From Gemmatimonadales bacterium (lineage in GTDB: Bacteria; Gemmatimonadota; Gemmatimonadetes; Gemmatimonadales; GWC2-71-9), in NCBI GenBank assembly GCA_035763805.1, contig DASUAL010000039.1, positions 20,465 to 84,464 on the forward strand: DNA of 64,000 nucleotides, written 5' to 3'. Positions 14,694 to 62,381 of the stretch are shown piece after piece (within the stretch, counting starts at the first letter, position 1; every line of letters begins with the position of its first letter). The position numbers and the translations under genes are program-made. The notes under the pieces are model-generated. The model ran no database searches, was not told the DNA's origin, and saw only the letters and a program-made list of their open reading frames with translations.

Positions 14694-17600
14694 GGTCGTT
14701 CCCCGCGGCTGCAGCGCGCCACCGACTCCGGCGCTTCCGCCACCCGAATCCCGAACTCCAGCAGCGCGAGAAAATGCGCACTTGCCTCGGAGCATTGACC
14801 GAGGCGCAGAGCCGCGGTGGCCCGCAGCGCGTACAAGCGCGCCCACCCCGGCCGCACCGCCAACGCCTCGACCAGCAGGCTGTCCGCGAGGTCGGGCGGC
14901 CCGTGGTTGGCGAACCGCCTCAGAACTTCGCCCAGCGCGTCGACCGGCAGCGGACGTCGATAGGTGCCCGAACCGACCGCGAGCGCCGCCCGCACGCCCC
15001 GCCCCGCCTCGGCCCAGCGGCCCTCCACGGCGGCGAAACCCGCGAGCTTGGCCCGGACCGCCGCGGTGTCCCCTCCGCGCGCGAGGGCGGCGGTGAGCAG
15101 CTCGCGGGTTCGTACGGTGTCCCCGCGCCGCTCCGCCACGGCGGCGGCCACGCGCAACGCCTCCGGGTGCCGAGCGCGTGTCAGAAGCGCGGGGAGGACG
15201 CTGTCGGCGTACGTACTGTCGCCCAGTTCCAACCGCACCTGCGCCACTCGCACGGCCCAGATCGGGTCCTCCGGGCGGGATTGATGCGCCGCCTCGATCA
15301 CCGCCCGGCGGGCAGGCGACACGCCCGGCGCCGTCACGGCCCTCGCCAGCTGGACCGGCGAGCCACCGGGCGTCTCGCCGGCCGAGGCGGCGATCGCGAG
15401 CAGGGAATCGAAGACCGGCCCGGCACCGGGCGGATCGAGGAAGCGGCGCGCGGCGACGAACTCGAGCTCGGGCCGATCGTCCCGGTGGACGAGGGTCGCC
15501 CGGGCGCTGAGCCATGCGGCGCCCGCGTCGCCGAGCAAGCGGCGCCCGAAGTAGTCGCCCACCGAATCGATCCCCAGCCATTCATGACCCAGCTCGCCGA
15601 TCGACGTGGCCGGGGCGAGCAGCCGTTCGAGCCACGTCCGGTCGTAGCGGATGGGGCGGCCGGAAGCGATGATCAGCACATCGACACTGTTCGAAAACCA
15701 GAGCTCCACCTGGGGAAACACTTCGCGCACGTTGCGCACGATCCCGGCGACGATGGGCAGCGGAAGCTGATACAGCTGCATCCACTGGCAGAATACGCCG
15801 TCGTCGGCGAGCCGGGTCCGCAAGAGGTGGAAGAACTCGGGTGTGTAGAGCGTCGCGACCCCTGCAACCCAGGGGTTTGACGGCTCGGAGGTGATGACGT
15901 CGAAGCGCTCGTCGTGCAGCTGCAGAGCGCTGCGTGCATCGTCCGCCACGACCGTGACCTCCGGGCGCTCCAGCACGGAGTGGTTGACGCTGGCGAAGTA
16001 CGGGCTCGCCCCGAGCACGGCGGGCTCGATCTCCACGATGCGCAGCCGCCGCATGCCGGGGACGTCCGCGAGGACGCGCGCCGTGACGCCGCTGCCATAG
16101 CCGATCACCAGGGCTGAGGACGCGCCTGCGCGGGCGGCCGCCGGCGCCAGCCCGGAGAGGATCTGGGTATTCATGTCCGCGTAATCGGACGCGTCGACCT
16201 TCCCGTTCACCCGCAGCGAGCGACCAATCGACGTCTCCCACACGCTGACCGTGGCGTTCCAGCCTTCCTGGAAGGCGAGCTGACGGGAGCCGGCATGAGT
16301 GAGGAACGCCTGCCGCTCGGCCGCGTTCATCGGCGCGCGTCCGTAGATCGTCGGAGCCAGATCGATGAGCCTGCTGCTCCACCCGGGGGCGGCGAGCGCG
16401 ACTCCGAGCGCGACGCTCGCGAGCGCGCCGGCCCCGAGCACCCGGACGCGCAGCGCCCGGTGCTCGGCGGACCGTTCTGCGACGCCGCGCGCGGCGAAGC
16501 CGGCGAGCACGAGCGCGGCGACGCCGTTGATGACGAGGCCGATGCGGAGCGTGGTCTCGCTGCCGAGCGCGACGACCAGCACGAAGCCGGTGAGCACGGC
16601 GCCGGCGATGGCGCCGAGCGTATTCAGGCCGTAGGCCCGGCCTACGTCTGCGCCGCGTGCCGCGTCCGGGCGGGCGGTGAGATCCGTCAACAGCGGGAAG
16701 GTCAACCCCATCCCGATGGCGGGGATCAGCACGACGCTGCCGACTGCTACACCCATGAGCAACAGGCGTGTCGACGCGTCGAAGCCTTGGTGCTGGAATA
16801 CCGCAAGGACGTATCGGGGAAGGACGCTGAAGAACAGCAGGAGCAAGGCGGCACCCGCACCGGTGACGCCCTGCGCCAGCGCCGCAGCAGCGGCGGTCTC
16901 CGAACGGGCCGTAGCCCGTCGTCCGACCAGCGCGCTCCCGAGGCCGATGCCGAGCAGGAACACCAGCAGCACCAGGGTAAACGCGTACGTTGACCCGCCG
17001 ACGACCATGACCAGCACCCGGGTCCAGGCGATCTCATTGAGGAGCGACGCGAACGCCGTGCAGGCAAGCAGTGCGAGCGCCGTGACCGCCAGCGCGTCGC
17101 GACGGCCGGCTGGGGCGACGGCGGGGAGCACGGGGGGGGGCGGCTCGGGACTGGGCGGGAGGGGCCGCGCCAACGCGATCGCCGCAAGCCCGAGGATGAT
17201 GTTAATGGCCGCCGTGCCCCAGAGCGAGAGGCGGATCCCCGCGAGCTCGATCAGGACGAACCCCGCGAGGGCCGTGCCCGCCATGGCACCGAGCGTGTTG
17301 AGGCCATACAGCCGTCCGAGCGAAGGTTTGAGCGCCCCGCGATCCACGCCCGTGAACGCGCGCGTCAGTACGGGAAGCGTGCCACCCATGAGCGTCGTGG
17401 GGACGAGGAGCACGAGCGCGGCGAGCCCGAACCGCAGGGCGACACTCGCCCCGCCTGAGAGCGGCCACGCGCTCGCGGCGCCGACGTAGACACGGTGCGC
17501 GAGCCCCAGCACCAGCGGCGAGACGAGGCCGAAGACGCCGATCGCGATCTCGAGCACACCGTACAGGGCGGCGGGCCGCGGGTGCCGGTCGACGTGCCGT

Positions 17601-17782
17601 CCCAGCAACCAGGCGCCCAGGCCGAGGCCGCCCATATAGGCGGCCACGACCGTCGTCACCGACTGAATGGTGGAGCCAAACGTCTGGTACAGGAGCCGAA
17701 CCCACAGCAGCTCGTAGACGAGCCCCGTGGCCCCTGACAAGAAGAAGAGGAGTCCGAAGGCGCGAGCGGCACTAGAACGCAT
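14690..17782 (-). CDS. fused MFS-like membrane domain / spermidine-synthase-like domain / C-terminal TPR protein
   Basis: ATG at 17782 (codon 55 of track ORF) gives [36 protein letters not shown]. There are many TM segments. The aminopropyltransferase-like core has [14 protein letters not shown] and [25 protein letters not shown]-terminal repeats are Ala/Leu/Arg-rich and TPR-like. Confidence 0.8.
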
Positions 17783-19892
17783 GCAGCTCGCGCATGGCCT
17801 GCGTGAGATCCTCCGTCTGCGGCAGGATGAAATCCTCGAGGTCCGGTGCGTAGCCGACGAACGTGTCGGTCGACGCGACCCGTCGTACCGGCGCGTCGAG
17901 CCAGGGGAAGCACGCGTCGCCCAGCGTGGCCGCGATCTCCGCACCGTAACCCCAGGAGAGCGCGTCCTCGTAGGCGACGAGCACCTTGCCGTTCTTCTTG
18001 ACCGACGCCCCGATCGCGTCCCAGTCCACCGGCGAGAGGCTGCGGAGGTCGATCACCTCCACGCTCAGGCCGTCCTTCTCCTCGAGCTCTTTCGCGGCGA
18101 CGAGCGCGCGCTGCACGACGGCACCGTAGGTCACGATCGTCAGGTCACGACCCTGCCGCACCACCTTCGCCTTGCCGAACGGAATCATGAAGTTCGGGCC
18201 CGGGTTCGGGGCCTTGTTGTAGGTCTGTCGGTAGAGGTGCTTGTGCTCGAGGAACAGCACCGGGTCGTCGCAGCGGATCGCGGTGCGCAACAGGCCGTTC
18301 GCGTCGAGCGCCGTGCTCGGGCAGACGACGCGCAGCCCGGGGATGGACGTGAAGACCACCGCGCCGGTCTGCGAGTGGTAGATCGAGCCGCCCTTCAGGT
18401 AGCCGCCGTAGGTCACCCGCACGACGGCCGGTGCACTGAACGCGTTACTCGAGCGCCAGCGTATGGTGGCGAGCTCGTTGCGAAGCTGATGATACGCGGG
18501 CCAGATGTAGTCGAAGAACTGGATCTCGACGACGGGCTTGAGCCCTCGCGTCGCCAGCCCAATCGCGCGGCCCACGATGTTTGCTTCGGCGAGTGGGGTA
18601 TTGTAGACGCGGTCGCTCCCGAACTGCCGTTGCAGGCCCCACGTGACCTTGAACACGCCGCCCTTCCCCTTCACCTCACCGAGGTATTGCTCCCGGCTCA
18701 CGTCGGCCACATCCTCGCCGAACGCGATGATGCGCGCGTCGCGCGCCATCTCGTCCTTCAGACAAGCATTGAGCAGGTCCACCATCGTCGTGGGATCACC
18801 CGTGAACTGAGGATCGTCCTCGGTGTCGAACTGCTCGGAGGTAGGATCGACGTCCGGCGAGTAGACGTACAGCAGGGCCGACTCGGGCTTCGGTTGGGGC
18901 GAGGCCAGCGCCATGTCGGCGGCCACGGTGACCTCCTCCTCGACCTGCCGCTTGATCTCTTCGATCTCCGCTTCGCTGGCGACGCCGTCGGCGATCAGGT
19001 GCTTCGGGAAGGTGAGCGTGCAGTCACGCTTCGCCTCCTCTTCCCGCTCGCGCGGCGGTTTGTAGAGCACCTCGTCGTCGGACAGCGAGTGCGAGTAGGG
19101 CCGCGTGACGTGGGCGTGCACGAGCGCAGGGCCGCGGCGCTCGCGGCAGTGTTGCGCCGCGCGGGCCAGCACGTCGTAGCACGCGATCGGGTCGCAGCCG
19201 TCCACCTCCTCCACCAGGAGGTCGGGGAAGTTACGCACCAGCTTGGACACGGAGCCGCCCGCGGTCTGGACCTCGACCGGCACCGAGATCGCGTACTTGT
19301 TGTCCTCGATGAGGAACAACACCGGGAGCTTGAGGTTGCTCGCGCTGTTCAGGGCCTCCCAGAATTCCCCTTCGCTGGTGGTGCCGTCCCCGGCGGAAAC
19401 GTACACCAGCTCATCGCCCTTGATGGGCTTCTCGGCGATGGCATCGATGCGGTCATAGCGGAGCCACGCTTCGGCGCAACCGACCGCCTGCAGGAACTGC
19501 GTGCCGGTGGGGCTCGACTGGCTGACGATGTTCAGCGCCTTGTGGCCCCAGTGTGACGGCATCTGCCGACCGCCCGAGTTCGGGTCCTCGGCGGCGCCGA
19601 CGGCCGAGAGGAGCATCTCGGTCGGCGTCATGCCGAGGGTGAGGCAGAGGGCGCGGTCGCGGTAGTACGGGTAGAACCAGTCGTAGGCGGGGCGGAGCAC
19701 CTTGCCCGCCGCCACCAGCACCGCTTCGTGCCCGGCGCCCGAGATCTGAAAGAAGATCTTGTTCTGGCGCTTGAGCTGGATCTCCTTGTCGTCGATCCGG
19801 CGCGACAGGAGCGTCAGCCGGTACATGTCGAGGAGATCCGCTTTCGGGAGGGCCTTAGCGGCCTTGGATCTGGGGTGGGTCCGGGTCGCCAT
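17772..19892 (-). CDS. thiamine-diphosphate-dependent 2-oxoacid dehydrogenase E1 component, alpha and beta subunits fused
   Basis: Alpha part: [35 protein letters not shown], with TPP motif [21 protein letters not shown]. Beta part: [41 protein letters not shown]. Its stop overlaps the downstream start by 11 nt. Confidence 0.85.
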
Positions 19893-33657: not shown

Positions 33658-33723
33658 TACATTCTCCTGCGTGATGCGAGCGTGAAAGCTACCACGGGGC
33701 ACGCAGGCCGGCCAAGACACCGC

Positions 33724-35412
33724 ATGCCGACGGACACAGAGTTCTCCCAGCGCACGCGCGCCGCGGCGCTCGCGTCGATGGTCGCCGAGCCGGTGGACGT
33801 CCTCGTCATCGGCGGCGGGATAGTGGGCGCCGGCGTCGCTCGCGACGCGGCGCTGCGCGGTTTCCGCACCGCGCTCGTGGACAAGGGCGACTTCGGAGGC
33901 GGCACGTCGTCCCATTCGTCCCGCCTGATTCACGGCGGTATCCGGTACCTCGAGCAACACGACTTCCGCCTGGTCCTCGAGGCGAGCCGCGAGCGGCGCG
34001 TGCTCATGAACATCGCGCCGCACCTCGTGCGCCCACTGCCTTTCCTGTTCCCCGCCTACCGGGGGGCGCGTGTCCGGGCGTGGCAGCTCCGTGCCGGGTT
34101 GTGGCTGTACGACCTGCTGGCCGCGTTTCGGAACGTCCGCCGCCACCGCTGGCTCGGGCGCAGGACCGTGCTGCGGCTGGAGCCGGGGCTCCGCGAGAAG
34201 GACCTCCAGGGCGCCGGGCTCTATTACGATGCCCAGACGGACGATGCCCGCCTCGTGATCGCCACGACGCGGAGCGCGGCGCAGGCGGGCGCGCTGGTCG
34301 CGAACTACGCCGAGGTCGTCAGCCTCCTTAAACCCGACGGGCGCGTGCGCGGGGCCACGGCTCGCGACGCTCTGACCGGCAGGACCCACACGGTGCGCGC
34401 GCTCGTGGTCGTGAACGCTACCGGGCCGTGGGTGGACCGCGTGCGCCGGCTCGACGACCCGCAGGCCGAGCCGCTGCTGCGGCTCACCAAGGGCGCGCAC
34501 GTCGCCGTGCCGCGCCAACGCGTCGGGAATACCCACGCCGTGACCATCACGTCCCCGATCGACGGCCGGGTGATGTTCGTGCTGCCGTGGGGAGAGCAGA
34601 GCTACGTCGGGACGACCGATACCGAAGACGCCGCCTCCCTCGACGACGTGCGGACCACGGCGGAGGACGTCATCTACCTCCTCCGGTCGGCGAACGCGTT
34701 CTTTCCCCAGGCCCGGCTGGCGCCCCAGGATGTTGTCGCGACGTGGGCGGGGCTGCGCGCGCTGCTACAACCGGATCAGTCCCTCTCTCCGTCCGAGGTC
34801 TCGCGCGAGCACCGGATCGTGGAGAGCCCGAGCGGACTGCTCTCGATCGCTGGCGGCAAGCTCACGACTTACCGCGTCATGGGGCGCGAAATGGTGGATC
34901 GCGTCGCCGCGCGGCTCACGGCCCTCGACGGCCGCCCCAAGGCGCCACCACCGCCCACCGACCGGCTGCCGCTCCCAGGCGGTGAGCCGGCGGACCTCAC
35001 CGTGCTCGTCGAGGCAGCCCGGGGACGCGGGGCGTCCGAGTCGACCGCACACCACCTCGTGGCCAGCTACGGTAGCGAGTCGGCCGGCGTGCTCAACCTC
35101 GCGGACCGCGATCGCAGGCTCGGCCGGCCGATCGAGAGCGGCCACCCGGAGATCTGGGCCGAGGTCGTGCATGCCGTGGAGCGGGAGATGGCGGTGCGGC
35201 TCGACGACGTGCTCGTCCGGCGGCTGCATCTCTTCTATCAAGACCGCGATCACGCGGCGCGCGCCGCGCCCGCCGTCGCCAAACACATGGCCGAGCTGCT
35301 CGGTTGGGACGCGGCGCGCGTGGAGGAGGAGCTCGACGAGTATCGGGGGGCGGTCGAGCGGGCCGGAGAGTTCCTGCGCCGGATCGCTCGTCCGAGCAAC
35401 GAAGTCGGCTGA
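33724..35412 (+). CDS. glpD: FAD-dependent glycerol-3-phosphate dehydrogenase
   Basis: DVLVIGGGIVGAGVARDAALRGFRTALVDKGDFGGGTSSHSSRLIHGGIRYLE. C-terminal GlpD alpha-helical domain. Start is ATG 33724 (alternative GTG 33682). Confidence 0.85.
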   Translation: MPTDTEFSQRTRAAALASMVAEPVDVLVIGGGIVGAGVARDAALRGFRTALVDKGDFGGGTSSHSSRLIHGGIRYLEQHDFRLVLEASRERRVLMNIAPHLVRPLPFLFPAYRGARVRAWQLRAGLWLYDLLAAFRNVRRHRWLGRRTVLRLEPGLREKDLQGAGLYYDAQTDDARLVIATTRSAAQAGALVANYAEVVSLLKPDGRVRGATARDALTGRTHTVRALVVVNATGPWVDRVRRLDDPQAEPLLRLTKGAHVAVPRQRVGNTHAVTITSPIDGRVMFVLPWGEQSYVGTTDTEDAASLDDVRTTAEDVIYLLRSANAFFPQARLAPQDVVATWAGLRALLQPDQSLSPSEVSREHRIVESPSGLLSIAGGKLTTYRVMGREMVDRVAARLTALDGRPKAPPPPTDRLPLPGGEPADLTVLVEAARGRGASESTAHHLVASYGSESAGVLNLADRDRRLGRPIESGHPEIWAEVVHAVEREMAVRLDDVLVRRLHLFYQDRDHAARAAPAVAKHMAELLGWDAARVEEELDEYRGAVERAGEFLRRIARPSNEVG

Positions 35413-35443: not shown

Positions 35444-35881
35444 CTATCGGCGCGCCTCCTGCAGCCGCGCACGGTAGTGTGCCAGGTTTTCGTGACTGAT
35501 CCGCGTCAGGTCGCCGGGCATCTCGTCCGGCCCGAACCAGCGGATTTCGGCGCACTTGTCCGGTTCTCGAATCACCGGCTCACCGCCTGTGCGTCGGCAG
35601 ATGAACGTGGGCGACACCCAATGCTGTCCCTCGTCCGGGAGGATGTGGTCCACGACGTCGAGCAACGCGCCAACATCAATTTCGATGCCGTATTCTTCCT
35701 GCATCTCGCGCTTCAGGGCATCGGCGAGCCGCTCGCCGAACTCGACGGAGCCGCCGGGGAACTCCCACAGCCCCCGCTCGTTCTTCGCCTTCGGGCCACG
35801 ACGCGCCAACAGCAGCCGGCCATCGTCGGCGACGATGATCGCGCCGACGCCGACGCCGACGTAGTCCACGCCGCGCTTCAT
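35444..35881 (-). CDS. NUDIX hydrolase
   Basis: ATG 35881 (codon 44 of the track ORF). Nudix box GGSVEFGERLADALKREMQEEYGI. Confidence 0.8.
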   Translation of the reverse strand: MKRGVDYVGVGVGAIIVADDGRLLLARRGPKAKNERGLWEFPGGSVEFGERLADALKREMQEEYGIEIDVGALLDVVDHILPDEGQHWVSPTFICRRTGGEPVIREPDKCAEIRWFGPDEMPGDLTRISHENLAHYRARLQEARR

Positions 35882-35885
35882 TGGA

Positions 35886-36899
35886 TCAGACCCATCCCCG
35901 CAGCGATCGTACGAAGTCGTGCACGACCAGGAATTTCTCGAACACCGGCACGCCCTTGCGCTTCCGACCGAACTCCGCGAACAGCTCTCGTAGCCGGCCC
36001 CGCCGCGCAACGTAGAACCGAAACGTTTCCGCGAAGTCCTCCTGCGGGTGCGTCGCGGCGTACGCCGTGACGTAATTCGGCAGCGTCGTCGTCACGCCGC
36101 GGCGCTCGAAGTCCACCCACTTCGAGTCGGCGACGCGGTATGCCTTGCGTACCTCCCCGAACGCCCGTCGGAAACGCCCCGTGCGGGTGAGCGACCAGTT
36201 GTGATACAGGAACGAGTGCCCCAGCTCGTGCAGGATCAGCCCCGTGAGCATGTTCCAGGAGATCTCGTCCCGCCATCGCTTACCGGTGACGTACCGGCGC
36301 TCGATTTCGATCACCTTGGGCGAGCGGTGCGTGACACCCGACACGCCGGGCCTCAGCAGCACGCGGTAGTTCCAATCCTTGATGCGCGCGACGACGAGGA
36401 GCTGTCGCACGCGCCGCAGCGCCTGACGGATGAGGTCGCGCCCCGACGCGTCCTCGCCGCACCACGGACAGACGTCCATCCAGTCGTCCACACCTTTGCT
36501 GCAGTGCGGGCAGATGTTCTGGTAGTCGTCGTACCGCCACTTTTGCGGCCGCCCGCACCACGGGCAGTGACGCATCGGGTACATCACCCCGCCGCCACAG
36601 CCCCAGCGGCAGCGCCGGTCGTACCGGAATCCTTTCGGCGCCTTGAGCGGCTCCGGACTCGAAGCCGGATCTTCGATTCTGCGCCCGCACCAGGGGCAGA
36701 ACGAGAACGCATCCGACACGACCCAGCCGCAGTAGTAGCACTCGGCGCCCGTCTCTTTCCGGGTGTCGCGCCACTCGAGACGCCGGCCGCAGTTGGAGCA
36801 GTGCGACCAGAAGCGCTCGAGCTCCGCGCCGCACGTCGGGCAGCGCAACTCGGGAGTCGGAACCTCGCGGCGGCGGCGCGGCCGCTTAGCCGTGGTCAC
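35886..36899 (-). CDS. four tandem zinc ribbons fused to an HExxH putative zinc-metallopeptidase-like domain
   Basis: GTG start overlaps the ATP-grasp stop by 14 nt. Ribbons: CPTCG..CSNCG, CYYCG..CPWCG, CRWGCG..CPWCG, CPHCS..CPWCG (aa 20-148). C-terminal LILHELGHSF and THPQEDFAETF. Confidence 0.7.
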   Translation of the reverse strand: MTTAKRPRRRREVPTPELRCPTCGAELERFWSHCSNCGRRLEWRDTRKETGAECYYCGWVVSDAFSFCPWCGRRIEDPASSPEPLKAPKGFRYDRRCRWGCGGGVMYPMRHCPWCGRPQKWRYDDYQNICPHCSKGVDDWMDVCPWCGEDASGRDLIRQALRRVRQLLVVARIKDWNYRVLLRPGVSGVTHRSPKVIEIERRYVTGKRWRDEISWNMLTGLILHELGHSFLYHNWSLTRTGRFRRAFGEVRKAYRVADSKWVDFERRGVTTTLPNYVTAYAATHPQEDFAETFRFYVARRGRLRELFAEFGRKRKGVPVFEKFLVVHDFVRSLRGWV

Positions 36900-37890
36900 G
36901 AGTGAGCGCCTCGTCGACGATCCGCTGGATGAAGTCCTCGTAGCTCATCCCCGCCTTCTCGGCCGCGTTGGCCATCTCGTGCTCGTAGGCGATGAAGGGG
37001 TTGGGGTTCACTTCGAGCACATAGACTTCGTCGTGCGTCAACCGCAGGTCCACGCGCCCGTAGTCCTGGAGCCAGAGCGCATGGAACGCCGTCGTGCAGA
37101 TGTCCGCGATCTTCGCCGTCACGTCCTCGGACAGCCCTTTCGCGAACACATTCTTGATCTTCTTCCGCTTGCGGTAGTCCTCATCCCATTTCGCCTTGTA
37201 GGTCGCGATGCGGTGCTCCGAATCATCTGCCTCGCCGAACATCATCTCGATGATGGGGAGCACCTGCAGCCGCTCGTTGCCGAGCAGTCCGACGTACAGC
37301 TCCCGCCCCTCGATCAACTCCTCCACGATCGCCGCCTGGCGGAACTTTTCGTGGATGAACGTGACCCGCTGCACGAGGCCCTCATCGTCCTCCACGACCG
37401 ACGCCTGCGCGATGCCCACGGACGCGTCCTCGAGCAGCGGTTTCACGATGAGCGGGAACCGGAGCTCGGATGGACGGACCGGCTTCTCCCCCGGATGGAA
37501 CTCGGCGAACGCCGACACCCGGATCCCGTGAAAGGCGAGAACCTTCTTGGTGAGCGACTTGTTCCGCGCCAGGAGCAGCGCCGTCGGAGACGAACCGGTG
37601 TAACGGTACCCATGCATCTCGAGCACCGCCGCGAGCCCGTACTCGTGGCGCGCATGGCCACGAAAGGCCTCGCACCCGTTGAACACCAGCTTCGGCTGGA
37701 ACTTCGCGAGGCGCTCGAGCATCGGTGCGAGCTCTTCGCCGACCCCGACCATGAGTACGTCGTGCCCCCGCGCCACGAGTGCCCGCGCCACGTCGTACTC
37801 TGCCTCCCGCACCTTCGCGTCGACTTCCTTCTTGTAGTCGGCGTCTTCCCAGTCGGGGTGCGGGGAGTCGAACAGAACGGCGATCTTCAC
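36886..37890 (-). CDS. ATP-grasp ligase, D-alanine--D-alanine-ligase-like family
   Basis: GTG 37890 (in frame), SD GGGGAGG upstream. VKIAVLFDSP.., ARNKSLTKKVLAFHGIRV, FPLIVKPLLEDASVGI, IVEELIEGRELYVGLLGN, GRVDLRL..VYVLEVNPNP. Confidence 0.8.
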   Translation of the reverse strand: MKIAVLFDSPHPDWEDADYKKEVDAKVREAEYDVARALVARGHDVLMVGVGEELAPMLERLAKFQPKLVFNGCEAFRGHARHEYGLAAVLEMHGYRYTGSSPTALLLARNKSLTKKVLAFHGIRVSAFAEFHPGEKPVRPSELRFPLIVKPLLEDASVGIAQASVVEDDEGLVQRVTFIHEKFRQAAIVEELIEGRELYVGLLGNERLQVLPIIEMMFGEADDSEHRIATYKAKWDEDYRKRKKIKNVFAKGLSEDVTAKIADICTTAFHALWLQDYGRVDLRLTHDEVYVLEVNPNPFIAYEHEMANAAEKAGMSYEDFIQRIVDEALTRDHG

Positions 37891-37910
37891 CGCCCCGCAC
37901 CTCCCCGCCC

Positions 37911-38015
37911 AATGCGGAATGCGGAGTGCGGAATGCGGAATTGAAATGGGAGGTCGATCACCGAACGACGCCCGACCTGACATTCCGCCTTCCCCATTCC
38001 GCATTCCGCATTCAT
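37911..38015. repeat. inverted arrays of the heptamer AATGCGG (about 32-nt arms) with an inner hairpin; likely terminator/processing structure after the MFS stop
   Basis: Left arm: AATGCGG AATGCGG AGTGCGG AATGCGG AATTG (37911-37943). Right arm: CATTCCG CCTTCCC CATTCCG CATTCCG CATT (37981-38012), reverse complement AATGCGGAATGCGGAATGGGGAAGGCGGAATG, about 28/31 match. Inner stem AGGTCG 37951-56 / CGACCT 37973-78. The right arm abuts the MFS stop at 38012-14. Confidence 0.8.
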
Positions 38016-39514
38016 GCTCTCACCCGCGCCATATCTCTTGCCACCGTCGTCAGCCCGATCAGGATCACCAGCCCCCCCACCGCTCCCGCAGTCGGAAGCA
38101 GCAGCATCGCCGGCCGGAGCCCGAACCGGTCGGAGAGGTACCCGACCAAAGGGGGTGCAATGGCGTCACCCGCGAGATGCGAGAACAGCACGTAGGCGCC
38201 GAGTACGGAGGCGCGGACCGCGGCCGGCACCACGTCCAGAATCACCGCGGAGAGCGGTCCGTTGTACCAGGTGTACAGGAAGAACGTCGCGAACAGAAGA
38301 GGCACGAACAGCTGCAACTCGTCGACTAGGAGCAACGCGGCGCACACCGGCCCGCCCAGCACGAATCCCGCTCCGCTCACGACGACGCGACCCCCAGGCC
38401 ACCGCTGCAGCAGCCAGTCGCCGACCCGGCCGCCGAACAGCGCCCCGAGGGCGCCCCCCGCGAGCCCCCAGAGCCCGAACTGGCGCCCCACCACCGCCAC
38501 CGAGAGGCCGTGCGTGCGCTGCATGAAGCTCGGTGCCCACGCGATGAGCCCGTTGACCGCAAACGTCACGAGCGCTCCGCCCAGGAACATCCAGATGAGC
38601 GTGGGCGTGCGGAGCACCGTGGCCGCCGCGTGCAGGAACTCGCCGTACGCCGTCGCCGCCACTTCCGTCGCTTCCGTGGTGCGCTGCACCGCGGCGGGAA
38701 TGAGTCGCACGACCGTCCAGACGATCCCGGCCGTGAGAAAGACGGCGAACACCCCTGTCTCGACCTCCGGAGGCGCGCCGAGCAGGTCGAGCACGCCGCT
38801 CAGCAGGGCGCCCACGAGCGCGAGGAGGATCATCGGTCTGCCGAGCTCCAGGGCCTGCCGCACTCCCCGTTCGGTCCAGCTCCGCACCGTCGCCGCGAGT
38901 GGCGCGGGCGGACGCCGGCGCGGCTCGCGCAGCCGCGACGCCAGGATCGTCAGGATGAACCCCGGCACGCCCATCGCCACGAACGCCGTCCGCCAGCCAT
39001 AGCGCTCGGCCAACACACCGCCCAGCCAGATCCCGAGCACGCCGCCGAACGCCATACCCACCGAGTAGATCCCGATGGCGAATGCCCGCCGGCGTCCTTC
39101 GTAGAACTCGGCGATGAGCGCCTGCGCCGCGGGCCCGTACCCTGCCTCGCCCACGCCCACCAGGGCGCGGCAAAACAGCAGCTGCCAAAACCGGTTCACC
39201 ACGGCGCCCAGCGCGGTGAAGGCGCTCCACAGCCCGACGCCGAACGCGATCACCGCGCGGCGGGAGCGCAAGTCGCCGATCACGCCGAGTGGCAGCGCCG
39301 CGAGCGACAGCACGATGACGTAGGCCGAGCCGAGCCAGCCGAGCTGCTGGTCGGAGAGCACGAGCTCGCGCTTGATGTGCTCGAACAGCGCGAAGATGAC
39401 GTTGCGATCGGTGTAGTTGAGGATGTTGATCAGCGTGAGGAGGGCCAGGGCGTACGCCGCATACGCCCCGGCGCCGCTCCCCCCGCGGGCGGGGCTAGGG
39501 TCTACGCCCGACAG
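38012..39514 (-). CDS. MFS transporter; true start upstream of the track start, probably CTG 39514
   Basis: The track ORF starts at GTG 39361 (..[14 protein letters not shown]). The in-frame upstream 51 codons encode ..[35 protein letters not shown], which is TM1 plus the MFS D-R-x-x loop. No ATG/GTG/TTG lies between that and the upstream stop. Body motifs [10 protein letters not shown] and 11-12 TM segments. Confidence 0.7.
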
Positions 39515-40634
39515 ACGTCGCCTCCGCGCGCGCGTCGCGGTCCGCCTTCGCCTCCTGGTAAGCCTGGGTCAGCTCCCGCATCATCGCGTCGCGACGGTGA
39601 TACAGGCGCTTCAGCCGACGCGGTTTGTGCTTCGCCAGTGCGTACGCGGCGAGGATCGGGAAGGCCACGGTGTTGTCGAGGTAGCACACCACGGTGTCGG
39701 GCAGCTTGTCCGGGTCCACCTTCCCCCAGCTCACCGCTTCGGCGGGCGTCGCCCCGGACAGGCCGCCCGTGTCGGGCCGGGCGTCGGTGATCTGGAGGTA
39801 GTAGTCGTGCCCCTTCTCGCTGATGCCGAGCACCTCCTGGATTTGCGGCTCGGTCTGGAGCACGAAGTTCTTCGGGCTGCCGCCCCCGATGATCAGCACG
39901 GCACTCTTGCCGCCGTGGGTCTTGGCGTCGAACACGATCGCGGAGGTCTCGTTCACGTCGGCGCTCACGTCGAACCGCAACTTCGACCCCGTCAGCGCCT
40001 GCTCGGCGACGTTCATGCCGATCGAGGAGTCGCCGGGGGACGAGGTATAGATCGGGACGCCGCACTCGTGCGCCACGCCGAGCACCGACTTGCGCGACAG
40101 GCCCAAGGCCTTCTCGCGCTCGCCGACGTAGCCGCCGAGCAGGTAGTGATACTCGGCGGTGCTCATCGGCCGCTGGAACTCGGGCGCCGACGACACCTCA
40201 CGGACGTACGCGTCGGTCGAGAGCAGCACCTCATAGTCGAAAAAAATGTCGTAGATGCGGACCACGCCCTCCTCGCGCAGCTCGACGTCGTTCGCGAACG
40301 GCGTGCCCCGGTGCATCGACAGTCCCAGACCGAAGTGCGCGTCGTGATACAGATTGGCGCCGGTCGACACGATCCAGTCAATGAAGCCCGCCTCGATGAG
40401 TGGATTGATCGTCGACATGCCGAGCCCCGCTGGCGTCATGGCGCCGGTCAGGCTCATCCCCACCGTGACGTCGTCCTCGAGCATCCGCTGGGCGAACAGC
40501 CGGCAGCCCTCGGCGAGCCGGCCGGCGTTATACGCGAGGAACGCATTGTCCACCAGCTCGGCGACGGACTCGCGGTCCGTGATCGGCCGGGGATCGATGC
40601 GTTGCCCGCGCAGGAGGTCCTTGCGTGTCGTCAT
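39495..40634 (-). CDS. deoxyhypusine synthase family protein (bacterial DHS-like / homospermidine-synthase-like)
   Basis: [62 protein letters not shown]. Confidence 0.85.
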
Positions 40635-40638
40635 GGTC

Positions 40639-41388
40639 TCACGTGTCTGGCTCGGCGATGGCCGGGAGCTCCTTGGCGCGGCGCTCCCGTGCCTCCCGGA
40701 TGATCGCGACCGCCTCGCGCGGGTGGTCGGTGATGTGGAGCAGGTCCAGGTCCGTCGTGGCGATCTTCCCCTCCCCCGCCACCCGCTCGCGCAGCCAGTC
40801 GACCATCCCCTGCCAGTACTCGCTGCCGAACAGGATCACGGGAAAGTGGCGGACCTTGCCGGTCTGGATCAGGGTCAGCGCCTCAAACAGCTCGTCCATC
40901 GTGCCGTAGCCGCCGGGGAAGACGACGAAGGCCGTCGAGTATTTCACGAACATCGTCTTGCGCACGAAGAAATAGCGGAAATTGATCGCCCGCTCGACGT
41001 AGGAGTTCAGCCCCTGCTCGAACGGGAGCTCGATGTTGCAGCCGATCGAGAGCCCGTTCCCCTCCTGACAGCCGCGATTCGCGGCCTCCATGATGCCTGG
41101 GCCGCCCCCGGTGATGATGGGAAACCCCTCCCGCGCGAGCATCCGCCCCGTCTCCACCGCCTTTTCGTAGAACGGATCGTCGGGCGGCGTGCGAGCGGAC
41201 CCGAAGACCGTCACCGCGTTGTACACGTCCGACAGGGTGTCGAACCCCTCGACGAACTCCCCCATGATGCGGAGCACGCGCCACGAGTCGGTCTTGACGA
41301 ACGGCCGCCGTTCGCGGGGGACCTGCGTGAGGAACTGTTCGTCCTCAGTGACTGCTTTGTGATGCGAGTCGCTCAAGCGCTGCGACAT
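40639..41388 (-). CDS. LOG family protein (TIGR00730-type Rossmann fold nucleotide N-glycosidase)
   Basis: ATG 41388 (codon 15 of the track ORF). [44 protein letters not shown]. Confidence 0.85.
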
Positions 41389-42526
41389 GGTCGTCCTGGA
41401 TGTTATAGAAGAAGGGAGAGAGGCGGACATGCCCCGGCCGCGCGTCCGCGATGATCCCGGCCGCCGCGAGGTGGCGCACCACCGCCGCAGGATCCTCGGC
41501 CGGGACCATCACGATCGCGGAGCGGTCGTCCGCACGGGGCGCTACCTTGGGCTCGAACCCGAGGCCCCGGGCGCGCGCGATCAGGTCTTCGGTGAGCTCC
41601 GCCGTGACCTCCCGGATCGCCGGCACGCCGATCTCCTCGATGTACCCGAGGCCGCCGAGCTGCGCATAGATCGCGGCGACGGACGGGGTGCCCAGCTCGT
41701 AGCGCCGCGCATCGTCGTGCAGGTCGAGCACGCGCGGCTCGAAGGCGAACTGGTCCTTGTGCCCAAACCAGCCCGCGATGCCCGGCGCGAGCCGGCGCGC
41801 GAGCGCCTCCCGCACGTAGAGGAACGCGATCCCCGGGCCGCCGAGCAGCCACTTCAGACCACCCGCGGTGAGGAAGTCGACGCCCGTGGCCTGCACGTCG
41901 AGCGTGACCTGCCCCACCGACTGGTAGGCGTCCACCAGGCAGAGGGCGCCCTGCGCGTGCGCCGCGTCCGCCACCGCGCGGATGTCCTGGATCGCGCCGC
42001 TCGTGAAGTACACGTGCGACGTCGCGACCAGCGCCGTCCGGTCGTCCACCGCCCGCGCGATCGCCTCGACGGGCACGGAGATCTGGTCGGGGCTTTCCAC
42101 CACCACGACCTCGACGCCCCGCAGCCGCTTCGCCAGCCACTGATAGGCGACCGTGGGAAAGTCCAGCGAGGTGACGACGACCTTCGGTCTCCGGCCGTAG
42201 TCGAGCGCCTCGGCGACCGCCGACAGCGCCACCGAGATGCTCGGGGCGAGCGCGATCTCCGCCGGGGCTGCCCCGATCACTCGGCCATAGCGTTCGCGCA
42301 GCTCGGCGAGCGCAGCCCACCACACGTCGTACCACGCGGACGCGCCCCGCGCCTGCCATAGCTCCAGAAACTCCGCCACCTTGATACGTGTGCGCTGCCC
42401 CAGGGCGCCGAGGGAGCAGGTGTTCAGATAGATCTGGTCCCGAAAGATCGGAAATTCGCTCCGATAGCCCGCGAGAGGGTGAGGCCCGGCCCGAGGGCCG
42501 GTTTGCAGGCCGCTTGCCAGCGTCAT
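41345..42526 (-). CDS. class V aminotransferase-fold PLP-dependent enzyme
   Basis: FRDQIYLNTCSLGAL.., TSHVYFTSG, LVDAYQSVG, FLTAGGLKWLLGGPG (PLP Lys region). Confidence 0.8.
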   Translation of the reverse strand: MTLASGLQTGPRAGPHPLAGYRSEFPIFRDQIYLNTCSLGALGQRTRIKVAEFLELWQARGASAWYDVWWAALAELRERYGRVIGAAPAEIALAPSISVALSAVAEALDYGRRPKVVVTSLDFPTVAYQWLAKRLRGVEVVVVESPDQISVPVEAIARAVDDRTALVATSHVYFTSGAIQDIRAVADAAHAQGALCLVDAYQSVGQVTLDVQATGVDFLTAGGLKWLLGGPGIAFLYVREALARRLAPGIAGWFGHKDQFAFEPRVLDLHDDARRYELGTPSVAAIYAQLGGLGYIEEIGVPAIREVTAELTEDLIARARGLGFEPKVAPRADDRSAIVMVPAEDPAAVVRHLAAAGIIADARPGHVRLSPFFYNIQDDHVAALERLASQSSH

Positions 42527-42593
42527 AGGCGGTCAATATACAGAATACAGAAGGAAAAGCGCGCTTGACACGTCCCAAAGTACATTCCATCGC

Positions 42594-42856
42594 ATGCAGG
42601 CTTCCGTCGGCTGGCCCGCTCTGTTCGCGCGGCTCACACTTCGAGCCCTCGTGAACCCACGGGTCGCGCTCGACCTCGCGCGCCTGACGTGGAGTTTCCG
42701 GGCTCGCGACTGGTACCGCCGACCGCCGTTCCTGCCCCTGCCGCCGCGCGACTACATGCGCTGGCGGATGTTCACCGCGTACGGCGACGAAGGTGCCGTG
42801 CCCCCTGTCGAGGACGTGATCAACTTCGCCCGCTGGCGCCGAGAAACCATGCATCT

Positions 42857-42860
<4 letters not shown>
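42594..42860 (+). CDS. small hypothetical protein (88 aa), ATGA-coupled to queG
   Basis: Track ORF. Trp/Arg-rich (..RRPPFLPLPPRDYMRWRMFTAYG..). Its TGA overlaps the queG ATG. Confidence 0.45.
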
Positions 42861-59421: not shown

Positions 59422-59865
59422 CTACGTCTTCACGGCATCGGTCAGCGCATTCCAGGGCAGAAGCGCGCACTTGATGCGCACCGGGAACTTGGACACACCG
59501 GCGAGCGCGCGCAGCTCGCCCAGCGCCTTGTCCCGCGCCGCCGCGTCGTCCCCCTGCATCATCGCGCTCATGCGCTCGGCCAGGGCGACCGCCTGTGGAA
59601 TGGACTTGTCCTTCAGGAGCTGAGTCATCATCGACGCCGACGCCTGGCTGATGGAGCAGCCTCGGCCGATGAAGCGCGCGTCCTTGATCACGTCGCCGTC
59701 GACCCGCAGCTGCAGGTCGATCTCGTCGCCGCACAGCGGATTGTTGAGCGACACCGTGTGCGTCGCGTCATCGAGCGTCCCCTTGTTGCGAGGACGCCGG
59801 TAGTGATCGAGAATCAGCTCCTGATAGAGCGCACTGAGCCTGGGCTCAGGCGGGGACGTATCCAA
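59422..59865 (-). CDS. sufU: SUF-system NifU/IscU-like Fe-S scaffold (SufU-type)
   Basis: TTG 59865 (in frame), 20-nt overlap with sufS. LYQELILDHYRRPRN, NPLCGDEI, GRGCSISQASASMM. Confidence 0.8.
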   Translation of the reverse strand: MDTSPPEPRLSALYQELILDHYRRPRNKGTLDDATHTVSLNNPLCGDEIDLQLRVDGDVIKDARFIGRGCSISQASASMMTQLLKDKSIPQAVALAERMSAMMQGDDAAARDKALGELRALAGVSKFPVRIKCALLPWNALTDAVKT

Positions 59866-61075
59866 ACAGGGCTCCGGCCTTGACGAGCGAGCCGGCGAGG
59901 GCCTCGACGTCCTCAAGATCGTTGTAGATGTAAAACGACGCGCGCGCCGTTGCCGCCACGTTGAGCCGCCGCATCAGCGGCTGGGTGCAGTGGTGCCCGG
60001 CCCTGATGCAGACGCCGTCCTGATCGAGGATGGTCGCGATGTCGTGCGGATGGATGTCGCCGTAGGTGAACGACACCACGCCGGCGCGGTGACCGCGCGG
60101 CCCGTACACCGTCACACCCTCGATCCCCGTGAGCTTCTCGATCGCGGCCCGGGCGAGTGCTTGTTCGTGCTCGGCGATGCGGTCGGGGTCGATCCGCTCG
60201 AGGTAGTCGACCGCTGCGGCGAGTCCGACCGCGCCCTCCACGTTCGGCGTCCCAGCCTCGAACTTGTGCGGGATCATGTTGTAGGTGGAGTGATCGTCCC
60301 ACACGCGCGAAATCATCTCGCCGCCCCCATGGTACGGCGGCATCGCCTCGAGCAACTCGGGCTTCGCCACGAGCGCGCCCGAGCCCATCGGTCCGAGCAT
60401 CTTGTGACCCGACAAGGCGTAGAAGTCGCAGTCGAGCGCCTGGACGTCCACCTTGAGGTGCGGGGTGGACTGCGCCCCGTCCACCACCACCACCGCCCCG
60501 ACTGCGTGCGCGAGCTTCGCGAGCTGCGCCGCCGGGTTCACCGTGCCGAGCGCATTCGAGACGTAGGGGAAGGCCACGATCTTGGGCCGCCGCTCGAGCG
60601 CCGCGCCGAAGTCCGATAAATCGATGCGGCCGTCCTCGGTGATCTCCACCATCCGGAGCGTCGCCCCCTTCTCCTGACACAGGATCTGCCACGGAACGAG
60701 GTTGGAGTGGTGGTCCATCGCCGTCACCACGACGGTGTCACCCGGTCGCACGTTGGCCCGGCCGTAGGACCCCGCGACCAGGTTGATCGCCTCCGTCGTG
60801 CCCCGCGTGAAGACGACCCCCTCCGTCGCCCACGCGTTGACGAAGCGCGCGATTCGCGCGCGCGCGCCTTCGTAGGCCTCCGTGGCCCGGATGGCGAGAC
60901 CGTACGCCCCGCGGTGCACGTTGGCGTTGGTCGTGCGATAGTACTCCTGGATGGCCGCGAGGACTGGCTCGGGCTTCTGGGTCGTCGCCGCATTGTCGAG
61001 GTACACCAACCGGCGGCCGTTCTCCGGTCGCTCGAGCAGGGGGAAGTCGGCGCGGATCCGCGCGGCGTCGAGCAT
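59846..61075 (-). CDS. sufS: cysteine desulfurase, SufS subfamily
   Basis: YLDNAATTQKP, SGHKMLGPMG (PLP Lys), RAGHHCTQPL (catalytic Cys). Confidence 0.9.
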   Translation of the reverse strand: MLDAARIRADFPLLERPENGRRLVYLDNAATTQKPEPVLAAIQEYYRTTNANVHRGAYGLAIRATEAYEGARARIARFVNAWATEGVVFTRGTTEAINLVAGSYGRANVRPGDTVVVTAMDHHSNLVPWQILCQEKGATLRMVEITEDGRIDLSDFGAALERRPKIVAFPYVSNALGTVNPAAQLAKLAHAVGAVVVVDGAQSTPHLKVDVQALDCDFYALSGHKMLGPMGSGALVAKPELLEAMPPYHGGGEMISRVWDDHSTYNMIPHKFEAGTPNVEGAVGLAAAVDYLERIDPDRIAEHEQALARAAIEKLTGIEGVTVYGPRGHRAGVVSFTYGDIHPHDIATILDQDGVCIRAGHHCTQPLMRRLNVAATARASFYIYNDLEDVEALAGSLVKAGALFGYVPA

Positions 61076-62381
61076 CAGGCGAGGCCGGCGCGCACCAGGC
61101 GGTCCAGGTGGTCTCGCAGGTCGGCGCGCTGCATGCGCCCGAGGATCTCGGCCGCGAACCCATAGGTCAGGAGACTCCGCGCCGTCTCGGGCGACAGGCC
61201 GCGGCTGCGGAGGTAGTGGACCGCGGTCTCATCGAGCGGCCCGACCGTCGAGCCGTGGGTGCACTTTACGTCGTCGGCGTAGATCTCGAGTTGGGGCTGG
61301 CTGTCCGCGCGCGCTTCAGTCGACAGGAGGAGGTTGTTGTTCGTCTGCTTCGAGTCGGTGCGCTGGGCGCCGGGCCGCACGATGATCCGGCCGTTGAACA
61401 CCCCATGGGCCCGCTGGTCGAGCACGCCGTTGAAGAACTCGTGACTCGCGCAGTGGGGCTTGGCGTGGTCGATGACCGTGTGGTGGTCCGCGTGCTGGGT
61501 CCGCCCGAGCAGGTAGAGACCGTTGAGAATCAGCTCGGCGCCGGCGCCGTCGAGCACCGTGTGGATGTCGTGTCTCGCGAGCAACCCGCCCAGGGTGACG
61601 GTATGCAGTCCGAGGAAGCTGTCCCGCCCCTGCTGCGAGTGCGTCGTGGCAACGTGGTAGGCCCGCCCGCCCTCGCGCTGTACGCGATAATACTCCGCCC
61701 GCGCGCCGTCGCCCACGACCACCTCCGTCACCGCGTTGGTCCAATAGACGCGGTCAGCAAGCGCAACGTAGCTCTCCACTACCACCGCCTGGGCCCCGGG
61801 CTCGATCACGATGAGGCTCCGCGGGTGGGCCACGGTGGGCCCCTCGTTCCCCTGGGCCGTCGCGACGAACAGTACCTCGAGGGGTTGCTCGAGCACGGTC
61901 TGCGCCGGGACGTACACGAAAGCCCCGTCGGCGAGGAACGCGGTGTTGAGCGCCGCGAAGGCGCTCTCGCGCCAGCGGGCGTAGCCGGCGAGGTGCTGCC
62001 GCGCGAGCTCGCCGAGCGGGCCAACCTGGAGCGCCGCGGCCAGGCTGGTCACCTGCACGCCTGCGGGCAACCCGGCGGCCCACGACAACTCGGGCGCGAA
62101 CTTCCCGTCGATGAACACAATCGTCGGGCCGGTGCCGAGCAGCAGCGGCTCGATGTCGCGCGGACTGGGGAGCGACGAGCGGGGACCAACGTGCGAGAGC
62201 TTGAACCGCGTCTCCGCGATCGGCGCCACGCTCGTGAAGCGCCACTCCTCCTGCTTCATCGTCGGGAAGCCAAGCTCGGCGAAGCGGGTGATCGCGCCTT
62301 CGCGCATTTCCTTGAGCCACGACGGGGCGCTGCCGGCGCCGTTGCCCGCAAACGCGCGGAAGTCCGCGACGTACTGTTCCG

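Follow-up and report, generated by a model that had tools for sequence, protein, structure and literature searches.

The described systems closest to the genes analysed here include the following two. In the SpeY/CdmS pathway, which employs enzymes with the fold of deoxyhypusine synthase (DHS), every SpeY homologue tested joins two agmatines into N1,N9-bis(guanidino)homospermidine, which in turn yields homospermidine through a ureohydrolase or an iminohydrolase (PMC13625781, PMC10981699). In glutathionylspermidine synthetase/amidase and in Ddl/VanX an ATP-dependent enzyme that forms an amide bond is encoded together with a hydrolase that potentially reverses the reaction. Genes recalling both systems stand side by side in a soil Gemmatimonadales metagenome-assembled genome, where seven open reading frames (ORFs) on the minus strand fill positions 35444-42526 of the window, i.e. 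of the whole stretch of 64,000 nucleotides that was analysed. Our analysis indicates that this array is a co-directional, probably co-transcribed and lineage-specific mosaic of at least three functionally independent modules (probability roughly 0.7). Within this otherwise ordinary mosaic operon the uncharacterised conserved part is a gene pair encoding a Ddl-like ATP-grasp ligase and a zincin with four zinc ribbons.

Gene content and junctions of the array

The genes of the array and the hairpin in its largest spacer are listed below in the direction of transcription. The four-zinc-ribbon/HExxH zincin protein is abbreviated as ZNR.

41345..42526, minus strand: class-V aminotransferase-fold pyridoxal phosphate (PLP) enzyme (Pfam Aminotran_5), first gene of the run
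40639..41388, minus strand: type-II LOG-family protein (TIGR00730), alternative start ATG 41430
39495..40634, minus strand: DHS-like "homospermidine biosynthesis protein", relative of bacterial SpeY (NCBIfam NF001980)
38012..39514, minus strand: major facilitator superfamily (MFS) transporter (MFS_1), proposed start CTG 39514
37917..38013, minus strand: heptamer hairpin (folding and covariation)
36886..37890, minus strand: Ddl-like ATP-grasp ligase (Dala_Dala_lig_C), first gene of the pair
35886..36899, minus strand: ZNR, four CxxC...CxxC ribbons and C-terminal HExxH/EDFAETF zincin (Peptidase_Mx, DZR), second gene of the pair
35444..35881, minus strand: MutT-like NUDIX hydrolase (Pfam NUDIX), 3' end of the run

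Families were assigned by Pfam and NCBIfam profile searches, which agree for all seven proteins, and all six junctions were checked base by base. The gene identities and junctions given in an earlier note on this DNA were confirmed by this. The PLP gene (stop 41345) overlaps the LOG gene (ATG 41388) by 44 nt, an overlap that recurs in independent gene calls of the relatives L003 and L115. A 4-nt gap separates the LOG stop (40639) from the ATG of the DHS-like gene (40634), whose stop (39495) lies in a 20-nt overlap with the MFS gene if the latter starts at CTG 39514. The MFS stop (38012) and the GTG start of the ATP-grasp gene (37890) are 121 bp apart, and this spacer contains an inverted heptamer repeat. 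The ATP-grasp gene (stop 36886) overlaps the ZNR gene (GTG 36899) by 14 nt, and the ZNR stop (35886) is followed after 4 nt by the NUDIX ATG (35881). To judge from this spacing, the seven genes are probably co-transcribed.

The ATP-grasp/zincin pair outside the close clade

The neighbourhood search was seeded with ZNR as the most distinctive member of the array, and the other members were searched for by tblastn. About 90 related loci were compared overall, the close clade being represented by 80 species-level GTDB loci with ZNR proteins that are 77-96% identical. Six distant Gemmatimonadota genomes (L001, L002, L085, L086, L087 and L091/L092) encode a ZNR with 58-66% identity. In all six the ATP-grasp gene is located directly upstream of the ZNR gene and overlaps it, except in L087 with a gap of 31 nt. 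These six loci represent six different neighbourhoods which have no neighbour in common, and within 8-10 kb tblastn detected neither PLP, LOG or DHS-like nor MFS or NUDIX homologues.

The pair is conserved at 58-96% identity across the sampled Gemmatimonadota genomes, and its genes overlap by 2-20 nt across contexts, which suggests translational coupling and a fixed stoichiometry of ligase and zincin. Literature searches on Peptidase_Mx with ATP-grasp proteins and on neighbourhoods of zinc-ribbon, ATP-grasp and metallopeptidase genes returned nothing relevant.

An apparent ATP-grasp/zincin fusion (P0261) was rejected as a fragment at a contig edge, an indel within the 14-nt overlap being the best explanation for it. 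A ZNR homologue with 30% identity (L088 8001-8987; L089 1439-2425), in which all cysteines and metal ligands are retained, is encoded downstream of three dynamin-like GTPase genes and has no ATP-grasp neighbour.

Conservation within the close clade

Within the clade the synteny is QueG<>PLP-LOG-DHS-MFS-ATP-grasp-ZNR, and of the 56 clade loci whose upstream flank extends over 7 kb or more, 48 have the full upstream order. Three of the remaining loci have no ATP-grasp gene, with the MFS gene abutting that of ZNR, two lack the PLP gene, two carry a truncated MFS gene and one lacks both the PLP and the MFS gene. When all clade loci with enough flank are counted, the ATP-grasp gene adjoins the ZNR gene in 68 of 74 and is missing in six, and the NUDIX gene was found in only six of 73. 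The PLP gene is missing in the relatives L028, L039 and L040, the MFS gene is missing in two to four loci, L040 and L042 included, and it is truncated in L077, L031, L015 and L069. LOG and the DHS-like protein are the only array members that are never separated in the clade sample.

In one sub-clade (L048, L049, L061, L078, L080 and L081) the ATP-grasp gene is cleanly gone and the MFS gene directly overlaps that of ZNR. Since the zincin is retained there, it can persist without an adjacent ligase gene.

In stability the unrelated flanks equal or exceed the array members, with QueG found in 56 of 56 loci and a gene resembling glycerol-3-phosphate (G3P) dehydrogenase in 50 of 50 downstream of the array. 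The synteny within the clade is therefore what shared ancestry alone would give. The stretch between the ZNR gene and the G3P-dehydrogenase-like gene is a variable region. The Gemmatimonadales relative L115 carries the same seven genes, with a BaxI gene following NUDIX.

The earlier note had regarded conserved linkage across related genomes as a test of its proposal, a single pathway for the synthesis, export and turnover of a polyamine conjugate. The two halves of the array are indeed syntenic in the 48 close-clade loci, but they are not linked in any of the six distant contexts, where the pair stands alone, and the proposal does not survive this comparison. Nor does linkage among the individual members hold, since the PLP, MFS and ATP-grasp genes are each missing in some clade loci. 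NUDIX, which had been counted among the members of the pathway, accompanies the pair in only six of 73 clade loci, and one of its relatives in Chloroflexi stands in an unrelated context.

The DHS-like protein and the link to polyamines

The DHS-like protein is the only array member that is demonstrably related to polyamines. It matches the NCBIfam model NF001980 ("homospermidine biosynthesis protein") with 558.6 bits against a cut-off of 450, over positions 1-349 of 350 of the profile, and Pfam DS with 233 bits. It remains below all equivalog models of true DHS (best 232.6 vs 434) and also below NF002699 (161.4 vs 500), on which the plasmid-encoded SpeY homologues of Sphingomonas and Nostoc, 30-34% identical to the DHS-like protein, reach 564 and 591 bits. 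The array protein thus belongs to NF001980, whereas the tested SpeYs belong to NF002699.

Its catalytic-lysine motif EAVSWGK aligns with that of human (K329) and archaeal DHS and is shared with the SpeY/CdmS enzymes, as is the DHS fold; the lysine itself (K305) is invariant with the SpeYs of Sphingomonas and Nostoc. A further motif, GGGxPKNF, is common to the DHS-like protein and the NF002699 SpeYs, whereas true DHS has KHH (His288) at this position. This motif, present in both bacterial DHS-like families where true deoxyhypusine synthases have GGGxxKHH, may serve as a simple sequence marker to tell SpeY-type enzymes from DHS.

The earlier note had ascribed to DHS-family enzymes the NAD-dependent cleavage of spermidine and the transfer of its aminobutyl group. 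This fits eukaryotic DHS, whereas the bacterial SpeYs studied couple two agmatines (PMC13625781, PMC10981699). Among the supported ORFs scanned in the window no arginine decarboxylase, agmatinase or agmatine iminohydrolase was found. The clade loci likewise contain no arginine decarboxylase and no diagmatine ureohydrolase or iminohydrolase, although such partners could lie elsewhere in the genome. Published SpeY clusters contain genes of the agmatine pathway, whereas the neighbours of the DHS-like gene in the array encode LOG, the class-V PLP enzyme and the MFS transporter. The gene of the Sphingomonas SpeY homologue is located directly behind a type III PLP decarboxylase, which is the alphaproteobacterial SpeY arrangement (PMC13625781).

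A homologue search with the DHS-like protein returned only relatives with at least 86% identity. Twenty distant DHS-like loci with 27-34% identity came from a plasmid tblastn search (two) and from a scan of viral contigs (18). They are of a different subfamily from the array protein, and the two plasmid proteins, which were classified, are NF002699. None of these 20 loci carries any other array family, LOG included. The substrate of the NF001980 protein would bear on the recent proposal that bacterial homospermidine synthesis is either agmatine/SpeY-dependent or putrescine/HSS-dependent.

LOG, PLP enzyme, MFS transporter and NUDIX hydrolase

The LOG protein matches TIGR00730 with 150.9 bits (cut-off 96.35), and its translation contains the motifs GGGPGIM and PGGYGTMDE. 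It resembles the type-II LOGs (PDB 5zi9, 5wq3 and Thermus TT1465), with 289 bits to 5zi9, a cytokinin riboside 5'-monophosphate phosphoribohydrolase, and with both nucleotide-binding motifs present. It remains, however, below the cut-off of the cytokinin-LOG equivalog NF058542 (54.6 vs 300). No link between LOG and DHS-like genes was mentioned in the literature searched.

The PLP enzyme matches Pfam Aminotran_5 with 129.9 bits and is below every NCBIfam equivalog cut-off, among them those for SufS (102 vs 475) and kynureninase (95 vs 246). The SufS of this genome is encoded at 59846-61228 (475 bits) and is distinct from the array enzyme.

The MFS transporter (MFS_1, 169 bits) is 60-97% identical in relatives. 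Its frame contains no ATG, GTG or TTG between the upstream stop at 39569 and GTG 39361, and a start at this GTG would cut the conserved first transmembrane segment. The genes of the relatives likewise have no canonical in-frame start upstream of this segment. In all relatives no stop interrupts the MFS frame where it runs through the 3' end of the DHS-like gene (39361-39569 in the window), and the public gene calls include a DHS-MFS "fusion" of 612 aa (P0134).

The NUDIX hydrolase (Pfam NUDIX, 83.5 bits) has a complete GX5EX7REUXEEXGU box and is below the MutT equivalog TIGR00586 (58.8 vs 97.9). It is 74-77% identical to proteins labelled Chloroflexi/Anaerolineae, one of which is encoded in an unrelated context (L113 6001-6441). 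For proteins of two phyla such identity is unusually high, which suggests that soil bacteria exchanged the gene horizontally in recent times.

The ATP-grasp ligase

The ATP-grasp protein matches Pfam Dala_Dala_lig_C with 94 bits and is below all Ddl and Van equivalog cut-offs of NCBIfam (130.5 vs 243; 117 vs 245.65). Its GTG start is backed by the alternation of GTG and ATG at the same position in relatives. A BLASTP alignment with E. coli DdlB, the reference sequence of which was verified to be identical to PDB 2dln, places both proteins in the same ATP-grasp subfamily with 28% identity over 263 residues. The DdlB residues K97, K144, E180, E187, K215, R255, D257, E270 and N272, which serve ATP and Mg binding, are kept in the array ligase, whereas the D-Ala site, to which the triad E15/S150/Y216 belongs along with H63, G276, S281 and L282 of DdlB, is changed at H63R, S150A, Y216W, G276F, S281H and L282E. 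The N-terminal GGxSxE motif is missing and this part could not be aligned. Since the ATP/Mg residues are kept and residues of the D-Ala site are replaced, the protein should be an active ligase which does not make D-Ala-D-Ala.

The zinc-ribbon zincin

ZNR matches Peptidase_Mx with 45.9 bits (cut-off 27) and DZR with 44.7 bits (both Pfam), its zincin motifs being HELGH and HPQEDFAETF. The 16 cysteines, HELGH and EDFAE, and with them H224, E225, H228 and E287/D288/E291, do not vary among 40 homologues, nor in relatives with as little as 30% identity. The family is narrow, with 34 representatives at E<1e-30 among 1.84 billion. When an AlphaFold2 model (pLDDT 74, pTM 0.70) was compared with the PDB, it matched other zincins only weakly (anthrax lethal factor, BlaR1, minigluzincins), with no match at E<1e-3. 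No solved or characterised counterpart of the architecture of four ribbons plus Peptidase_Mx zincin was found in the searches run.

Since it has no lipoprotein signal and its basic N-terminus is followed by the four zinc ribbons, ZNR is probably cytoplasmic. From the predicted activities we infer that ligase and zincin form a couple acting on a carboxylate-amine substrate. The sole tie of the pair to polyamines is its position in this one clade.

Two other roles were considered for ZNR and rejected. A LysW-type carrier does not fit as the C-terminus is not acidic and the zincin site is intact. A SprT/Spartan-type protease for DNA-protein crosslinks, prompted by DNA-repair neighbours in L002, was dismissed because of the gluzincin-type motif (HExxH...EDFAE) and because no neighbour is common to the six distant contexts.

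The heptamer hairpin between the two halves

The spacer between the MFS and ATP-grasp genes can fold into a hairpin of about 97 nt (-65.2 kcal/mol, z = -3.8), each arm of which consists of four tandem heptamers of the AATGCGG type. It extends from the MFS stop codon to a point 26 nt short of the ATP-grasp start, and a GGGAGG ribosome-binding site occupies these 26 nt. There is no U-tract after the stem. The hairpin was detected at the same orthologous site, and only there, in at least 16 relatives (including L009, L013, L016-L018, L020-L023, L030, L031, L033, L037 and L079), with no other copy in the window or in about 1.3 Mb of related loci. The heptamer varies by lineage (AATGCGG, AACGCGG, ATTGCGG) and the opposite arm changes to match, with compensatory double changes in nine of 34 pairs. 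Rfam contains no matching family; the only hits were spurious ones to microRNA hairpins, far below the gathering scores. In relatives without the hairpin the MFS and ATP-grasp genes overlap or are separated by 0-40 nt.

A separate promoter for the pair is unlikely, since the 26 nt are occupied by the ribosome-binding site and the relatives without hairpin have overlaps or gaps of 0-40 nt. Most likely the hairpin modulates read-through, processing or stability of one transcript. In L012 (around 8958-9090) the hairpin has lost its 3' arm and the ATP-grasp gene roughly its first twelve codons, owing either to a deletion or to an assembly artefact.

Proposed mosaic and alternative explanations

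In the mosaic that we favour, module 1 would comprise LOG and the DHS-like protein, accompanied by two dispensable members, the PLP enzyme and the MFS transporter. As expected from its family, the DHS-like protein would transfer a four-carbon amine unit in an NAD-dependent reaction via a lysine-imine intermediate, presumably yielding homospermidine or its bis-guanidino precursor. LOG, a putative N-glycosidase of nucleoside 5'-monophosphates, would be joined to this module by ancestry and not by any shown chemistry. Module 2 would be a self-contained unit, in which the Ddl-like ligase, translationally coupled to the four-ribbon zincin, converts a carboxylate via an acyl-phosphate to an amide with a substrate other than D-alanine, and the zincin hydrolyses the bond made by the ligase or a related one. 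Module 3 would be a MutT-like NUDIX gene that landed in the variable downstream region. Between modules 1 and 2 the hairpin may take effect at the level of the RNA, be it through partial attenuation, through processing or as a barrier to decay, so that the two halves would differ in expression level without its being a full terminator.

The single pathway would instead assign a step to each gene: the DHS-like protein makes an aminobutylated polyamine, the ligase conjugates and the zincin deconjugates it, the MFS transporter exports it, and cofactors are supplied or cleaned up by LOG, NUDIX and the PLP enzyme, comparable to glutathionylspermidine synthetase/amidase. Its logic of ligase and hydrolase is enzymologically sound, and the tight junctions, the probable single transcript, the order kept in the 48 close relatives and the seven genes of L115 all agree with it. 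We nevertheless regard it as improbable: the pair is independent of all other members in every context outside the clade, NUDIX is present in so few loci, six clade loci lose the ATP-grasp gene yet retain zincin and polyamine genes, and the other six families are absent from all 20 distant plasmid and viral DHS-like loci examined. Moreover, unrelated flanks are equally syntenic, and unrelated genes overlap equally tightly in this phylum. A bolder reading, in which the pair is an undescribed ligase-hydrolase system widespread in Gemmatimonadota, its ribbons binding a macromolecular or polycationic substrate, that was recruited here under hairpin control to modify or recycle homospermidine, is given little credence. 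Some considerations nonetheless weigh against independent modules. The order of SpeY-like, MFS, ATP-grasp and ZNR genes in most clade loci could possibly reflect a recently evolved functional link, the pair and the DHS-like protein could possibly share a substrate in the distant genomes without their genes being adjacent, and the adjacency of LOG and DHS-like genes may be functional as well as inherited.

Two further explanations concern the hairpin. According to one, it is a factor-independent terminator of a PLP-LOG-SpeY-MFS operon, and ATP-grasp, zincin and NUDIX genes are expressed from a promoter of their own. A very stable hairpin exactly at the module boundary, its conservation with compensatory changes and the autonomy of the pair elsewhere speak for this; however, the stem is not followed by a U-tract, the short distance to the ATP-grasp start would place the promoter inside the MFS gene, and many relatives do without the hairpin altogether, so that two operons seem unlikely. 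The earlier note had offered two unrelated, merely abutting operons as its own alternative. Our comparisons come nearer to this as far as unrelated units are concerned, but these units are probably co-transcribed. The other explanation considers the heptamer repeat as an element of the DNA, be it a palindrome to which a protein binds or what is left of a small mobile repeat, the arms of which are kept complementary by intrastrand repair and not by selection on the structure of the RNA. Tandem 7-bp repeats in the arms are typical of slippage, the palindrome is identical on both strands, and its presence in only part of the clade resembles a gain or loss event. The single orthologous site, on the other hand, argues against a mobile repeat, and the compensatory changes are equally predicted by selection on the RNA; the two readings do not exclude each other. 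We consider a DNA-level element doubtful.

Setting of the array in the window

The run is bounded at the NUDIX side by the convergent FAD-dependent G3P-dehydrogenase-like gene (33682-35412, plus strand), and at the PLP side by a divergent ORF of 88 aa followed by a QueG-like gene. One further feature was read directly from the sequence:

42527..42593, no strand assigned: divergent AT-rich intergenic region of 67 bp upstream of the PLP gene

This region, which holds TTCTGTATTCTGTATATTGAC and carries a TTCTGTA direct repeat, is the only obvious location for a promoter of the run. A simple sigma-70 scan detected no convincing promoter in it. The 88-aa ORF between the PLP gene and QueG (region 42527-42860) has no Pfam match, and in the relative L003 two 88-aa ORFs flank QueG.

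Otherwise the window contains chromosomal housekeeping genes (Lon, suf genes, mnmG, a parA-like gene and beta-oxidation genes). Other same-strand runs in it comprise one of six and one of at least 13 ORFs supported by the GC content at the third codon position, and in L002 the unrelated purD, fpg and ATP-grasp genes overlap equally tightly, by 17 and 4 nt. In view of such comparable runs and overlaps of unrelated genes, the packing of the seven genes is not more than expected by chance; in compact genomes of high GC content, genes lying close together in one direction are weak evidence for a function in common.

The earlier note had also pointed to a fused MFS/spermidine synthase at 14690-17782. 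The spermine/spermidine-synthase domain was recovered (48 bits), only at residues 640-784 of the stop-to-stop ORF 14690-18052 (minus strand, 1120 aa), and no MFS domain was reported at E<=1e-5. This ORF lies at a distance of 20 kb from the array, and the 10-kb flanks of the relatives show no linkage between the two. A PADLOC search returned no defence-system match for the ATP-grasp/ZNR pair, the MFS transporter, the DHS-like protein or LOG; NUDIX (PDC-S07) and the class-V PLP fold (DndA/SspA) gave matches of a generic kind only.

Comparison with known systems

As a whole the array gives no pointer to a new polyamine-conjugate pathway. Gemmatimonadota are abundant in soil and have very few cultured members. 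The leads worth attention are the ATP-grasp/ZNR pair, the NF001980 clade of DHS-like proteins, which has LOG as a constant neighbour, and the heptamer hairpin with its covariation.

In its zincin domain ZNR resembles the lipoproteins of the Peptidase_Mx (PF15887)/TIGR04549 type, with which it has HExxH and the downstream glutamate motif EDFAE in common. It is below the cut-off of TIGR04549, the substrate-import-associated zinc metallohydrolase lipoproteins (25.5 vs 75), and PDB 9urd matches it only at E = 0.21. Unlike these lipoproteins, ZNR shows the N-terminal organisation described above and is partnered with an ATP-grasp gene and not with a TonB-dependent transporter. The likeness to glutathionylspermidine synthetase/amidase (GspSA) and to Ddl/VanX lies in the pairing of ligase and hydrolase. 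In sequence ZNR is related neither to the CHAP amidase of GspSA nor to VanX, and the ligase is encoded together with a zincin that is probably cytoplasmic, unlike the Ddl of cell-wall clusters.

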